Positions 48,021-52,194 of a DNA stretch of 64,000 nt are shown here, piece after piece; position 1 is the stretch's first letter, and every line of letters starts with the position of its first letter. The stretch lies in NCBI RefSeq assembly GCF_003334785.1, contig NZ_QOWV01000001.1, one strand, 5' to 3'. The position numbers and the translations under genes were made by a program. The notes beneath the pieces were generated by a model, which ran no database searches, had not been told where the DNA came from, and was given only the letters and a program-made list of their open reading frames with translations. The stretch comes from Escherichia coli. Its GTDB lineage: Bacteria > Pseudomonadota > Gammaproteobacteria > Enterobacterales > Enterobacteriaceae.

Positions 48021-48920
48021 TTACGCAGAGAAAAAGGCGATGAGGATCGGCACTAACAGGCTAAGAATAAAACCGTGAACAATTGCCGCCGGGACCATAT
48101 CCAGCCCGCCAGTACGTTGAAGAACGGGCAGGGTGAAATCCATTGATGTGGCACCGCATAAGCCCAGTGCAGTAGAGCGGCTGCGGCGAATCAGCCCAGG
48201 GATCAACATAATAGCAATCAGTTCACGGGCCAGATCATTAAAAAACGCCGCGCTCCCGATTACCGGACCAAAAGATTCGGTCAATAAAATACCGGAAAGA
48301 GAATACCAGCCGAAACCGGAGGCCATTGCCAGCGCGGTATTGATGGGGAGATCAAGAATAAAGGCGTTAATTAAACCACCAATTAATGAACTGACAACCA
48401 CCACCACGGCGACAATCATTCCCCGGCGATTAAGGACAATCTGCTTTAAGGTCATGCCATTATTGCGCAACTGAATACCAACGAGGAAAAGTAGCAAAAT
48501 TAACGTGTATTCACTGGCTTCGGTCGCGTGTTGTAAGAAAGCCAGTCCACTTAGACCAATGGCAAAACCAATCACTACTACGCCGCACAGTTTTAGCGAC
48601 TCCAGCGCCATCGCAATACGCGACGGGAGTTTTTCTTGCTGATGGTGGTTGCGCCACGGCAGGCCTCGCTCCAGCCACATCAGGGCGGCAATATTACACA
48701 GTAAAATAACGGTAATACTGACGGCAGAATAATGCAGAATCGCCAACAGGTTACTGGCGAGGTTATCGAGAAACGCCAGACTGATACCCATAAAAAAGAG
48801 AATAAGGTAAACCATCCAGCTTAATAGCTGATTAATAACTTTTAACGCAGCTTGTTGGCGAAGCGGAATGAGGTAACCCACAATCAGGGGAACCAGAATG
48901 ATTAACAGCCCAGAAAACAT
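48021..48920 (-). CDS. lysO: Lysine exporter LysO (YbjE)
   Basis: ORF trimmed to MFSGLLIILVPLIVGYL (299 aa); polytopic membrane protein. Confidence 0.85.
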   Translation of the reverse strand: MFSGLLIILVPLIVGYLIPLRQQAALKVINQLLSWMVYLILFFMGISLAFLDNLASNLLAILHYSAVSITVILLCNIAALMWLERGLPWRNHHQQEKLPSRIAMALESLKLCGVVVIGFAIGLSGLAFLQHATEASEYTLILLLFLVGIQLRNNGMTLKQIVLNRRGMIVAVVVVVSSLIGGLINAFILDLPINTALAMASGFGWYSLSGILLTESFGPVIGSAAFFNDLARELIAIMLIPGLIRRSRSTALGLCGATSMDFTLPVLQRTGGLDMVPAAIVHGFILSLLVPILIAFFSA

Positions 48921-49084
48921 GAAAACCCAGTCCTTGCAAAGATGAAGTCGAAATGCGCGATGACACACTACTGAAAGCGGAAGGACGAGTAAAGTTGCAA
49001 TTAAAAGGAAATGTTATGCATAAGGAGCAGTAGAGTATTCGTTTTCATTTAAAGATATTCTTGCGCTTTAATTACAAACTGCAC

Positions 49085-49330
49085 CGATGTTGGTGGCGTC
49101 AAAATCGCCGAGGCGTTCCCTGAAGGCCGGGGCAGCCCACATGGATGTGGGCTGAGGGCGCGTTTTACAGGGATGTTACCTCGCGCCCGACCCGGTAGCC
49201 GTAAGGGATAAGTCGAGGGCACCGCGCAGCGGCGATTTTGTTCGCCAGAGCCCGGGGGTGCAGGGGGCGGCGGCGATTGGCCGCCCCCTGCGCGCTCCTT
49301 GCGCCAGTGGCAATATGTTGCTTAGCTCAT
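49085..49330. repeat. GC-rich block with nested inverted repeats between lysO and aqpZ (unclassified extragenic element or structured RNA)
   Basis: Inverted repeats caaaatcgccg (49096-49106) / cggcgattttg (49230-49240); gcccacat/atgtgggc at 49133-49150; gggggcggc/gccgccccc at 49263-49289. No ORF. Confidence 0.35.
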
Positions 49331-49414
49331 GAAAGGAGCGCAACAAGATGATGAATCAACATATAACAACATCTTAAAAAAAGGCCTGACATTACGCCAG
49401 GCCTTCTGCGTTAA

Positions 49415-50110
49415 TTAATCACGCTTTTCCAGCAGGGTCCGGTAAATCAGACCACCGATAATGCCGCCGACAATTGGCACCACCCAGAAGAACCACAGTT
49501 GTTCTAATGCCCAGCCGCCCTGGAAGATAGCAACCGCGGTGCTGCGCGCCGGGTTAACAGAAGTGTTAGTCACCGGAATACTAATTAAGTGAATCAGGGT
49601 TAAGGCCAGACCAATAGCGATCGGCGCAAAACCTGCCGGCGCGAATTTGTCGGTTGCGCCGTGGATCACCAACAGGAAACCTGCACTCAATACCAGTTCA
49701 ACTACCAGCGCGGAAAGCATGGAATAACCGCCTGGTGAATGCTCGCCATAACCGTTAGAAGCAAAACCGCTGGCTGCCGCGTCAAAACCCGTTTTACCAC
49801 TGGCAATTAAATACAGCAGCGCCGCTGCAACAATACCGCCGACAACCTGGGCAATTACGTAGCCAACGACTTCTTTTGCCGGAAAACGTCCGCCAGCCCA
49901 TAAACCAATAGTGACCGCCGGGTTAAAATGACCACCAGAAATATGACCAACAGCAAAGGCCATCGTCAGAACGGTCAGACCGAACGCCAACGCCACGCCG
50001 GCAAAACCAATGCCTAATTCCGGGAAGCCTGCGGCCAGTACAGCACTACCACAGCCACCAAAAACAAGCCAGAAAGTACCAAAACATTCAGCTGCTAATT
50101 TTCTGAACAT
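49415..50110 (-). CDS. aqpZ: Aquaporin Z
   Basis: ORF trimmed to [17 protein letters not shown] (231 aa); NPA motifs present. Confidence 0.9.
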
Positions 50111-50535
50111 ATCCACCTCAATTAAAAATTGACCCTGTGAAAAATATGGTCGTTTTATAGGGTCGTCGTAAAAAAGTGACGACGGAAATAATGCGCGGCT
50201 ATTTTAAAAACGAAGGCGAGTCATTCACCAGATAAATAAATCCAGTAAATTTGATTTAGGGCAACAGCGGGTTGCCCCATATAGTCATTTGTCTGATTGA
50301 CAGTGTAGTGCACGCAAAAGATTTAATCCTTTAGGCGTAATAAAAAATAATTTATCATGCTAATTATTTGATTTTGTTGTTTTTGCAGACTTATCAGCAA
50401 GAGGGAGTATAACGCGATTATTCGCTCATTTTTCAGACATTTGCCATGCTTAAATGTGATGTCATCACGTATTAGCAAGGCCTTTCCCGTTATACTGCCA
50501 GCGTAAAGGATAAGTCACATATTTCTGGAGGGGAT

Positions 50536-52194
50536 ATGATTCTTGAGCGCGTTGAAATTGTGGGTTTTCGCGGTATCAACCGTTTGTCGTTGATGCTGGA
50601 ACAAAACAACGTCCTGATTGGGGAGAACGCGTGGGGTAAATCCAGCTTGCTGGACGCCTTAACTCTGCTGCTATCGCCAGAATCAGATCTCTACCATTTT
50701 GAGCGCGACGATTTCTGGTTCCCGCCGGGAGATATCAACGGGCGAGAACATCATCTGCATATTATTTTGACCTTCCGCGAATCGCTGCCAGGCCGACATC
50801 GGGTTCGCCGTTATCGGCCGCTGGAAGCGTGCTGGACGCCATGCACCGATGGCTATCACCGTATTTTTTATCGTCTGGAAGGGGAGAGTGCGGAAGACGG
50901 CAGCGTGATGACACTGCGCAGTTTTCTCGATAAAGACGGACATCCGATTGATGTCGAGGATATTAACGATCAGGCACGCCATCTGGTGCGTTTAATGCCG
51001 GTGCTGCGCTTGCGTGATGCCCGTTTTATGCGCCGTATTCGTAACGGCACGGTGCCAAATGTCCCTAATGTGGAAGTCACCGCGCGCCAGCTCGATTTCC
51101 TCGCCCGTGAGTTATCCTCACATCCGCAAAATCTCTCTGATGGGCAGATTCGTCAGGGACTTTCCGCAATGGTACAGCTGCTTGAGCATTATTTCTCTGA
51201 GCAGGGGGCCGGACAGGCGCGATATCGTTTAATGCGGCGGCGAGCCAGCAATGAGCAACGAAGCTGGCGCTATCTGGATATCATCAACCGGATGATTGAC
51301 CGACCTGGTGGGCGCTCGTATCGGGTTATTTTGCTCGGCCTATTTGCTACTTTGTTGCAGGCAAAAGGCACATTGCGACTGGATAAAGACGCCCGTCCAT
51401 TGTTGCTGATCGAAGATCCAGAAACCCGTTTACACCCCATTATGCTTTCAGTTGCCTGGCATCTGTTGAATCTTCTGCCATTGCAGCGCATTGCCACCAC
51501 CAACTCGGGTGAGTTGCTTTCGTTAACGCCGGTAGAGCATGTTTGCCGACTGGTACGTGAGTCCTCGCGCGTTGCCGCCTGGCGTCTGGGGCCGAGTGGC
51601 TTGAGTACCGAAGATAGCCGACGCATATCCTTTCACATTCGTTTTAACCGTCCGTCATCGCTGTTTGCACGCTGCTGGTTGCTGGTGGAAGGGGAAACGG
51701 AAACCTGGGTTATCAATGAACTGGCGCGTCAGTGCGGACATCATTTTGATGCCGAAGGGATCAAGGTCATTGAGTTTGCCCAGTCCGGGCTAAAGCCACT
51801 GGTTAAATTTGCCCGCCGAATGGGGATTGAATGGCATGTACTGGTCGATGGCGATGAAGCAGGGAAGAAATATGCCGCTACGGTACGCAGCCTGTTGAAT
51901 AACGATCGGGAAGCCGAACGAGAACATTTAACGGCGTTACCGGCGCTGGATATGGAACATTTTATGTATCGCCAGGGATTTTCCGATGTGTTCCACCGCA
52001 TGGCGCAAATCCCGGAAAATGTACCGATGAATCTACGCAAAATTATCTCGAAAGCGATCCATCGCTCTTCCAAACCCGATCTTGCCATTGAAGTGGCAAT
52101 GGAGGCAGGACGTCGTGGTGTGGACTCCGTACCGACGCTGCTGAAAAAAATGTTCTCACGCGTGCTGTGGCTGGCGCGCGGTCGCGCGGATTAA
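50536..52194 (+). CDS. ybjD: YbjD, OLD-family (ATPase plus TOPRIM) putative nuclease
   Basis: 552-aa ORF; N-terminal P-loop GENAWGKSSLLDAL; C-terminal TOPRIM-like acidic motifs LLVEGETE and VDGDEAG. Confidence 0.85.
   Translation: MILERVEIVGFRGINRLSLMLEQNNVLIGENAWGKSSLLDALTLLLSPESDLYHFERDDFWFPPGDINGREHHLHIILTFRESLPGRHRVRRYRPLEACWTPCTDGYHRIFYRLEGESAEDGSVMTLRSFLDKDGHPIDVEDINDQARHLVRLMPVLRLRDARFMRRIRNGTVPNVPNVEVTARQLDFLARELSSHPQNLSDGQIRQGLSAMVQLLEHYFSEQGAGQARYRLMRRRASNEQRSWRYLDIINRMIDRPGGRSYRVILLGLFATLLQAKGTLRLDKDARPLLLIEDPETRLHPIMLSVAWHLLNLLPLQRIATTNSGELLSLTPVEHVCRLVRESSRVAAWRLGPSGLSTEDSRRISFHIRFNRPSSLFARCWLLVEGETETWVINELARQCGHHFDAEGIKVIEFAQSGLKPLVKFARRMGIEWHVLVDGDEAGKKYAATVRSLLNNDREAEREHLTALPALDMEHFMYRQGFSDVFHRMAQIPENVPMNLRKIISKAIHRSSKPDLAIEVAMEAGRRGVDSVPTLLKKMFSRVLWLARGRAD

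Follow-up and report, generated by a model that had tools for sequence, protein, structure and literature searches.

The GC-rich block between lysO and aqpZ in Escherichia coli is TRIP1a, also called RRS-lysO, a repeat that has already been described and named. It was located at positions 49085-49330 of the stretch of 64,000 nucleotides analysed here (the window). TRIP1 repeats were first listed by Rudd in 1999, and three of them are present in K-12 (Li et al. 2024, PMC10888264). According to the same study TRIP1a occupies K-12 positions 915016-915281; the aqpZ stop codon lies 70 bp upstream of it and ybjE/lysO 158 bp downstream. The two full copies have been renamed Replication Risk Sequences, RRS-lysO and RRS-dusC (Pham, Wood, Dunbar, Cox and Goodman, NAR 2024, PMC11194060). 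Of 5001 bases compared here, only 1 is different between the window and K-12 MG1655; K-12 coordinates equal window positions plus 865937. TRIP1a as published is thus found at 49079-49344 on the + strand. RRS-lysO as deleted by Pham et al., given as '168-389 bp upstream of lysO' (PMC11194060), corresponds to 49088-49309, + being the G4 or 'sense' strand of these authors. Their G4-forming 20-mer, GGGGGTGCAGGGGGCGGCGG, lies at 49254-49273 with a G4Hunter score of 2.3; it occurs once in the window, on the + strand, and is absent from the - strand. Sequence, coordinates, G4 20-mer and neighbouring genes of the block and of TRIP1/RRS are identical, and nothing was found to differ. The identification settles the finding, since a named and experimentally studied element requires no new category. 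Alignments of paralogues indicate a conserved unit slightly wider than the published TRIP1a, extending over approximately 49056-49362.

The other K-12 copies support this identity, as they fit the published descriptions. TRIP1c was reported downstream of yohI/dusC in opposite orientation, and a '125 bp internal deletion' was noted in TRIP1b, which is located downstream of putP (PMC10888264). Accordingly, a second full copy with 94% identity was found in K-12 on the - strand, at a distance of 52 bp downstream of dusC (locus L129, 3116-3387), and the putP copy (locus L132) is devoid of the stretch corresponding to 49137-49239. Our first guess, based on a size of ~150 bp, the palindromic form and a low copy number, had been an RSA repeat. 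RSA repeats measure 150/151 bp and number six in K-12 (PMC5172473). This guess was dropped because the TRIP1/RRS papers gave exact coordinates; RSA and TRIP1 are presumably distinct, because TRIP1 was reported as novel in 1999, when RSA had already been named. Membership in a known Rfam family was likewise rejected, the sole match being a sub-threshold one to TwoAYGGAY.

The initial annotation of the window had described the block as GC-rich and free of ORFs, with several perfect inverted repeats, of which it gave three. All three repeats are present where it had placed them, and two are longer than reported. CAAAATCGCCG (49100-49110) pairs with CGGCGATTTTG (49230-49240); this pair exists as described, but its spacing is 119 nt between the arms, or 130 nt from start to start, and not about 125. 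Of the other two, GCCCACAT/ATGTGGGC was extended by the repeat finder to 10-nt perfect arms (49133-49142 and 49145-49154), and GGGGGCGGC/GCCGCCCCC to 12-nt perfect arms (49260-49271 and 49280-49291). In 100-nt windows the GC content is 0.63-0.72 over 49100-49349, compared to 0.35-0.47 to the left and 0.41 to the right. No credible ORF is present, the overlapping ones (37-57 aa) being only mechanical. Consensus scanning revealed neither an intrinsic terminator nor a sigma-70 promoter inside the block. The absence of any resemblance to REP was confirmed as well, as the REP-derived Rfam models (naRNA4) gave no match in 48500-50300, even with E up to 10. Within the 64-kb window no further copy of the element was found. 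By contrast, the proposal that the block is a 5' regulatory region of aqpZ is wrong. The aqpZ gene lies on the - strand, with its stop codon at 49415 and a terminator hairpin at 49381-49405; the block is therefore situated downstream of aqpZ and its terminator hairpin and upstream of lysO (- strand, annotated ATG start at 48920), and a role as aqpZ leader is ruled out by gene orientation.

The suggestion that the block belongs to a different class of extragenic repeat proved correct, since further copies exist in E. coli genomes and in other enterobacterial genera. A search with a 149-nt core gave a match in all 5426 complete E. coli genomes, at a median of 3 places and at up to 10. The core was also matched in Klebsiella and Citrobacter records, and BLAST detected it in Escherichia, Citrobacter, Klebsiella, Enterobacter, Leclercia, Kluyvera, Silvania, Pseudescherichia and Pseudocitrobacter. 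The family is thus present in at least nine enterobacterial genera, usually with several copies per genome. In addition, a pattern scan of 100,044 species genomes yielded 119 loci.

The element is a folded unit of three domains, consisting of a core with two CANGGAYG loops, followed by hairpin B and then hairpin C. Covariation analysis across Enterobacteriaceae, which the initial annotation had proposed, showed that the core and both hairpins covary across enterobacterial genera. The 171-nt core folds on the + strand with -85.6 kcal/mol (z = -4.61), a value reached by 0 of 200 shuffled sequences. On the - strand the fold amounts to -75.0 kcal/mol (z = -3.91), so that the + strand is favoured by 10.6 kcal/mol. 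An alignment of 90 distinct copies was folded with RNAalifold, giving 39 pairs, and compensatory changes were found in 21 of these. This covariation supports a structure under selection.

The core domain (49100-49240, + strand) is closed by the 8-bp stem P1, formed by CAAAAUCG (49100-49107) and CGAUUUUG (49233-49240). It continues with a tandem G·A, a helix containing a G·U pair, a GGG/CCC clamp, hairpins 1 and 2, and a small 3' hairpin. The 11-nt inverted repeat mentioned above is stem P1 plus the next bases; in the family these bases instead form the small hairpin CCGC/GCGG at 49222-49232 (+), which covaries to UUGC/GCAA, UCGC/GCGA and CCAC/GUGG. The core matches R1, a model made from enteric cores, at 173 bits, which is so by construction. 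An invariant G-A at 49110-49111 (+; 90/90 copies) stands opposite the G-A at 49215-49216, so that the closing helix contains an internal loop of tandem G·A. The G at 49115 (+) pairs with the U at 49209, and this pair is G·U in 90/90 copies; on the opposite strand it would be a C·A mismatch. GGGAUAAG (49205-49212, +; family consensus GGRAUAAG, with AUAAG invariant) provides the 3' side of the helix with GCGUUCC at 49114-49118. The GGRAUAAG motif also closes the stem in look-alikes from non-enteric Gammaproteobacteria.

Hairpin 1 (49133-49154, +) has a 10-bp stem and the loop CAUGGAUG (49140-49147), which can be read as the hexaloop AUGGAU closed by C-G; compensatory changes occur in 6 of 9 of its pairs. 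Hairpin 2 (49157-49187, +) carries the loop CAGGGAUG (49168-49175), with the family consensus CANGGAYG. C-A-N-G-G-A-Y-G is retained in both loops, and every position of it except N and Y (C, A, G, G, A and the last G) is unchanged in 90/90 copies. Nearly all copies have AUGGAU as loop 1, and loop 2, AGGGAU here, is A[G/U/A/C]GGA[U/C] across the family.

Downstream of the core, hairpin B (49260-49291, +) forms a perfect, GC-rich 12-bp stem, the 5' arm of which overlaps the G4 sequence; 6 of its 8 scored pairs covary (93 copies). Hairpin C (49292-49341, +) has the basal stem GCGCUCCUU/AAGGAGCGC, which covaries with CGUUCAC/GUGAACG of a second subfamily. Subfamily 1 comprises TRIP1a and TRIP1c together with the Klebsiella and Kluyvera copies, has the hairpin C stem GCGCUCC and reaches a median G4Hunter score of 2.3. 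Subfamily 2 (stem CGUUCAC) comprises the copies of Citrobacter, most Enterobacter, Leclercia and Silvania as well as the Escherichia yegH-asmA copy, and its median G4Hunter score is only 1.15. All copies carry hairpins B and C. As the hairpins and loops are universal and strong G4 potential is confined to subfamily 1, the G4 is a subfamily feature. What is conserved family-wide are the three covarying hairpin domains and the two invariant GGA loops, rather than the G4. A small ORF was considered at the end of hairpin C, where AAGGAG followed by ATGATGAATCAACATATAACAACATCTTAA (49333-49375) resembles a Shine-Dalgarno sequence with an ORF of nine codons. It was rejected because AAGGAG is the 3' arm of hairpin C, which becomes AAGUGAACGG in subfamily 2, and because the downstream ORFs are different in every copy.

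The repeat finder also detected a direct repeat, GTTCCCTGAAGGCCGGGG at 49115-49132 and GTTCGCCAGAGCCCGGGG at 49240-49257, the two copies lying 125 bp apart. The pair brackets the stretch that is absent from TRIP1b and from an allele of the lysO-aqpZ locus.

The substitutions within the core are strand-specific. Counted as sequences and not as independent events, G·U was found in 230 cells over all core pairs versus 7 for A·C, and in 38 versus 4 when only covarying pairs were considered. Core pairs that switch between C-G and U-A do so with U·G intermediates and never with C·A. The core thus tolerates G·U (or G·T) wobble only on the G4/GGA strand, which fits either this strand as single-stranded DNA or an RNA with its sequence. 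No such asymmetry was seen in hairpins B and C (7 versus 6 in covarying pairs). The strand on which the structure is tolerated is therefore intrinsic to the element.

Most probably, RRS-lysO acts through a fold of one strand that includes the G4 and leaves gaps in the lagging strand, and is a structured three-domain unit maintained by compensatory change. This one-strand fold with lagging-strand gaps is published and is the best-supported mechanism. At both loci the lagging-strand template is the G4 strand, which blocks Pol I, II and IV in vitro and reduces the M13 yield in vivo (PMC11194060). RecA and SSB accumulate on ~2 kb of lagging-strand template adjoining each RRS, and relocated copies likewise gather both proteins (PMC11194060). 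Deletion of either RRS alone is tolerated; the double deletion requires amplification of a 200-kb region, or extra or inverted copies (PMC11194060). Double deletion or inversion alters the supercoiling measured with psoralen genome-wide (PMC11194060). The + strand, as lagging-strand template, has thus been shown to fold into a G-quadruplex and other secondary structure once unwound. Polymerases halt at the fold, and a gap of up to ~2 kb is left, occupied by SSB and RecA. According to the authors' hypothesis, such transient gaps may act as swivels or relief valves for topological stress near the borders of the Ter macrodomain.

The natural polymorphism in orientation, the outcome of the GC-skew comparison across the family (both described below) and the confinement of strong G4 potential to subfamily 1 count against this mechanism. 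An inverted RRS shows no RecA/SSB peak, yet it allows the other copy to be deleted without amplification (PMC11194060), so that gap formation may not be the essential activity of RRS. Moreover, the conserved loop sequences are left unexplained by the G4/gap model. No mention was found in PMC10888264 or PMC11194060 of the multi-genus spread with its subfamilies, of covariation, of wobble confined to one strand, of invariant CANGGAYG loops, of the likeness to TwoAYGGAY, of the confinement of the G4 or of an orientation without bias, and PMC11194060 contains no mention of sRNA, non-coding RNA or hairpins.

The orientation of the element was analysed with respect to replication and to the neighbouring genes. 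In the window the + strand has a GC skew of +0.031, and the locus (K-12 ~915 kb) is part of the right replichore; judged from K-12 coordinates, the lagging-strand template is therefore the + strand. In a set of 60 single-copy loci drawn from many genera, the strand with the G4 was the positive-skew strand in 26 (p = 0.37), which is no bias by this test, a noisy proxy using flanks of at most 14 kb. Thus, that the lagging-strand template carries the G4 is true in K-12 and is no family rule. In co-directional spacers the element has no preferred orientation to the neighbouring genes either (9 versus 13). Orientation also varies at a given locus, the lysO-aqpZ element being flipped in strain E69 and the yohP-dusC element in O157:H7 and strain BH100N relative to K-12. 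Such polymorphism has been reported, with 3448 forward and 1255 reverse for TRIP1a and 2952 and 2789 for TRIP1c, as has recombination between TRIP1a and TRIP1c (PMC10888264). An actively invertible switch was rejected. The inverted segments differ by 8-11%, compared to 98-100% identity of the flanks on the better-conserved side, and this argues for old alleles or products of recombination between copies and against a recent flip.

The initial annotation had also considered a structured RNA, which is possible. The core might also, or instead, work as RNA made from the + (G4/GGA) strand with a fold of the TwoAYGGAY class, a reading to which we give a low though appreciable probability. Its two ANGGAN hexaloops would be bridged by one CsrA dimer, and the element would tether or titrate CsrA. 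TwoAYGGAY (RF01731; Weinberg et al. 2010) resembles the element in having a pair of neighbouring hairpins with A-N-G-G-A-Y loops, enclosed by a long stem that contains tandem G·A, as well as several copies per genome, occurrence in Gammaproteobacteria and no fixed gene association. The motif has been described with two AYGGAY loops and a very long P1 (supplement of PMC2864571) and is multi-copy in Psychromonas; a long P1 stem closing around two hairpins is present in the element as well. Rfam TwoAYGGAY matches the + strand over its full length with 30.6 bits (E = 0.026), below the gathering threshold of 43. The element further differs from TwoAYGGAY in its loop 2, which is AGGGAU and not AYGGAY, in being GC-rich, and in carrying two further conserved hairpins and a G4. 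None of the 22 enterobacterial loci scanned matched TwoAYGGAY at the gathering score. The non-enteric gammaproteobacterial loci from the pattern scan show the same plan as the enteric core. Model R1 matches three of them, L066 with 36 bits, L022 with 30 and L097 with 24, and L097 passes the Rfam TwoAYGGAY threshold with 45.2 bits. These R1 matches arise partly by construction and are weak support, since the non-enteric loci had been chosen with a pattern that contains the loops.

The loops themselves point to CsrA. CsrA and RsmE favour an ANGGAN hexaloop closed by C-G, with RUACARGGAUGU as SELEX consensus and a distance of 10-63 nt between the two sites of one dimer (PMC7652899), and TwoAYGGAY has been proposed to bind CsrA (Gardner and Eldai, PMC4333381). 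At the level of sequence, both loops of the element fit ANGGAN, the GGA spacing of 28 nt is within the bridging range, and hairpin 2, UUACAGGGAUGU, agrees with the SELEX consensus at 11 of 12 positions; however, its 'ACA' is GCA in most genera, and the 9-10 bp stem of hairpin 1 is very stable. The invariance of CANGGAYG in both loops and a wobble asymmetry intrinsic to the element strand, with orientation to replication and neighbouring genes variable, are in line with an RNA. G·T wobble, however, is tolerated in single-stranded DNA too, no evidence of a transcript was found, consensus scanning revealed no promoter-like site in the + direction, and here the GGA strand runs antisense to the genes on both sides. 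The published function, moreover, is exerted by the element as DNA. In the E. coli CsrA CLIP-seq tables (Potts 2017 supplement), dusC and ybjE are marked 'No' in all four yes/no columns, which we tentatively took as no evidence of binding for these genes; the tables are gene-based, and intergenic or antisense peaks are not assignable in them. The CsrA/RsmE sponges CsrB/CsrC and RsmX/Y/Z likewise present GGA in C-G-closed hexaloops at one-dimer spacing. Unlike these RNAs, the element has only two sites, long stable stems and no known BarA-UvrY promoter.

The covarying fold, the CsrA-type loops, the likeness to TwoAYGGAY, the weak G4 in half of the family, the variable orientation and the rescue by inverted copies leave room for a second activity. 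Such an activity, RNA-based or exerted via a loop-binding protein, has a low though appreciable probability. There is a modest chance that what all TRIP1/RRS copies conserve is, instead of the G4, a fold of the TwoAYGGAY class with two hexaloops of the CsrA type, under selection on one strand whichever way replication runs. If this were true and the + strand expressed, part of the RRS phenotype could stem from RNA or a loop-binding protein, e.g. CsrA, and not from gaps at the G4; this concerns the rescue of the double deletion irrespective of orientation and the altered supercoiling across the genome. The conserved hairpin domains and loops, the intrinsic strand and the variable orientation bear on which feature carries the conditional essentiality of RRS, and they provide a link from the K-12 element to the orphan TwoAYGGAY motif and to CsrA.

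Somewhat less likely still is that the element is mainly a selfish or neutral palindromic repeat, comparable to a miniature inverted-repeat element, that has spread into gene 3' regions. The structure would then be kept for mobilisation or persistence, and recombination between copies would be the main consequence for the host. Copy number is variable, ranging from 1-10 per E. coli genome to 12 places in a Klebsiella chromosome, and copies lie at different loci in different genera. When the GGA strand was used to orient the element, 45 of 73 copies proved to lie between convergent genes, a strong excess. The divergent inverted alleles within well-conserved flanks described above and the 156 documented TRIP1-mediated rearrangements (PMC10888264) are compatible with such an origin, as is a weak terminal inverted repeat, ATATTCTTGCGCT (49055-49067) with its partner AGCGCAACAAGAT (49337-49349). 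This repeat, however, is only 13 nt long and 85% complementary, and in contrast to a miniature inverted-repeat transposable element neither the paralogues nor the orientation variants showed a target-site duplication at their junctions. There is no known associated transposase, and positions are stable within Escherichia. No copy was present among 50,697 phage records; plasmid carriage was rejected because the inspected 'plasmid' records are chromosomal fragments with chromosomal genes, typed as non-mobilizable. The published deletion phenotype also points to a host function (PMC11194060). A selfish palindromic repeat is possible as the origin of the element.

The view that the element is upstream promoter or regulatory DNA for lysO is very unlikely. 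It starts ~135 bp upstream of the lysO start codon, and a constitutive sigma-70 promoter, 'TTGACG-19-TGTAAT', has been assigned to ybjE in this spacer by genomic SELEX (Shimada 2014, PMC3946193). A matching site, TTGACG-N20-TGTAAT, is found at 49071-49102 on the - strand and is directed outward, toward lysO, its -35 hexamer lying within the element in the outer stem of the core. However, the spacer of this site is 20 nt, its -10 part is not conserved in paralogues, and the consensus scan did not detect it as a promoter. Copies elsewhere are located downstream of genes and occur in both orientations, most of them between convergent genes, and the proximal lysO leader remains 96-98% identical in lineages in which the element is inverted or internally deleted. 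An effect on lysO could be a local side effect at most and cannot explain the family.

Among extragenic repeats, REP/BIME and ERIC (IRU) share with the element an extragenic position, palindromic form, enrichment at gene 3' ends and a role as substrates of rearrangement. The element differs from them in showing no sequence similarity, in its far lower copy number and in its larger, three-domain unit; naRNA4 (REP-derived) matches occur elsewhere in related loci and not on the element. With regard to the published mechanism, the pilE G-quadruplex of Neisseria gonorrhoeae is a parallel, as a bacterial G4 on one strand that leads to a gap or nick with biological consequence, and it was cited by the RRS authors as the only other example (PMC11194060). 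The pilE G4 is short, needs transcription of its own sRNA and drives pilin recombination, whereas the element is a multi-hairpin repeat of 270 bp for which topological effects have been proposed.

A further locus in Escherichia, the yegH-asmA spacer, also carries this type of repeat. In K-12, the spacer contains a relic of a subfamily-2 element, located at 2139502-2139568 of K-12 (locus L130, 3503-3569) and reduced to hairpin B and the 3' half of the core. A fuller copy is present between the same genes in other E. coli lineages, E. albertii and E. whittamii (loci L047, 8804-8988; L013, 385-570; L083, 8494-8614; L086 and L107), the match in E. whittamii being confined to the core's first 120 nt. 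The five TRIP1 types described by Li et al. 2024 (PMC10888264) do not include one at yegH-asmA.

In Citrobacter species, two different element subtypes were found as a head-to-head pair, with approximately 105 nt separating their 5' ends (loci L010, 8821-9201; L024, 726-1115; L035, L099, L104, L014, L009 and L098). The C. youngae pair is immediately 3' of dusC. At one Klebsiella locus (L003, 971-2334), a copy of ISKpn1 (IS3 family) is situated about 150 bp upstream of the element, within the stretch where an otherwise identical locus (L004) has a REP-like sequence.

In other Gammaproteobacteria, an extra conserved hairpin (UUUUGGUUACUUUUCUUU...AAAGAAAAGUAAC) follows the two-GGA-hairpin unit on its 3' side, as seen in two Methylococcaceae loci (L051 and L025) and in Psychromonas sequences (PMC2864571 supplement). 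Multi-domain repeats built on the two-GGA-hairpin motif may therefore be common.

TRIP1 copies with 83-93% identity to those of E. coli or Klebsiella were also found in assemblies bearing non-enterobacterial labels, namely MAGs of Desulfacinum (L020), Sporobacter termitidis (L060) and Proteobacteria (L037) and a 583-bp contig of Bacillus sp. (L102). These copies most likely reflect contamination or mis-binning. Chromosomal sequence, either the hcp-lysO-aqpZ-ybjD region or other housekeeping genes, is present in database entries classed as plasmids, namely the 42-kb 'plasmid' NZ_CP148327.1 (L001) and several PLSDB records (0.2-5 Mb). These entries are probably pieces of chromosome or replicons assigned to the wrong category.

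Within the window, aqpZ is adjoined by ybjD (50536-52194), for which RefSeq records give an ATP-dependent endonuclease and NC_000913.3 a DUF2813 protein; the gene is unrelated to the repeat element. The aqpZ terminator hairpin (AAGGCCTG/CAGGCCTT) lies at 49381-49405 on the minus strand, where it is followed by a T-run, and was overlooked by the terminator scan because of its 9-nt loop. Weak Rfam matches to the sRNAs Hrs12, STnc390 and SorX at 49373-49454 reflect nothing more than the aqpZ terminator.
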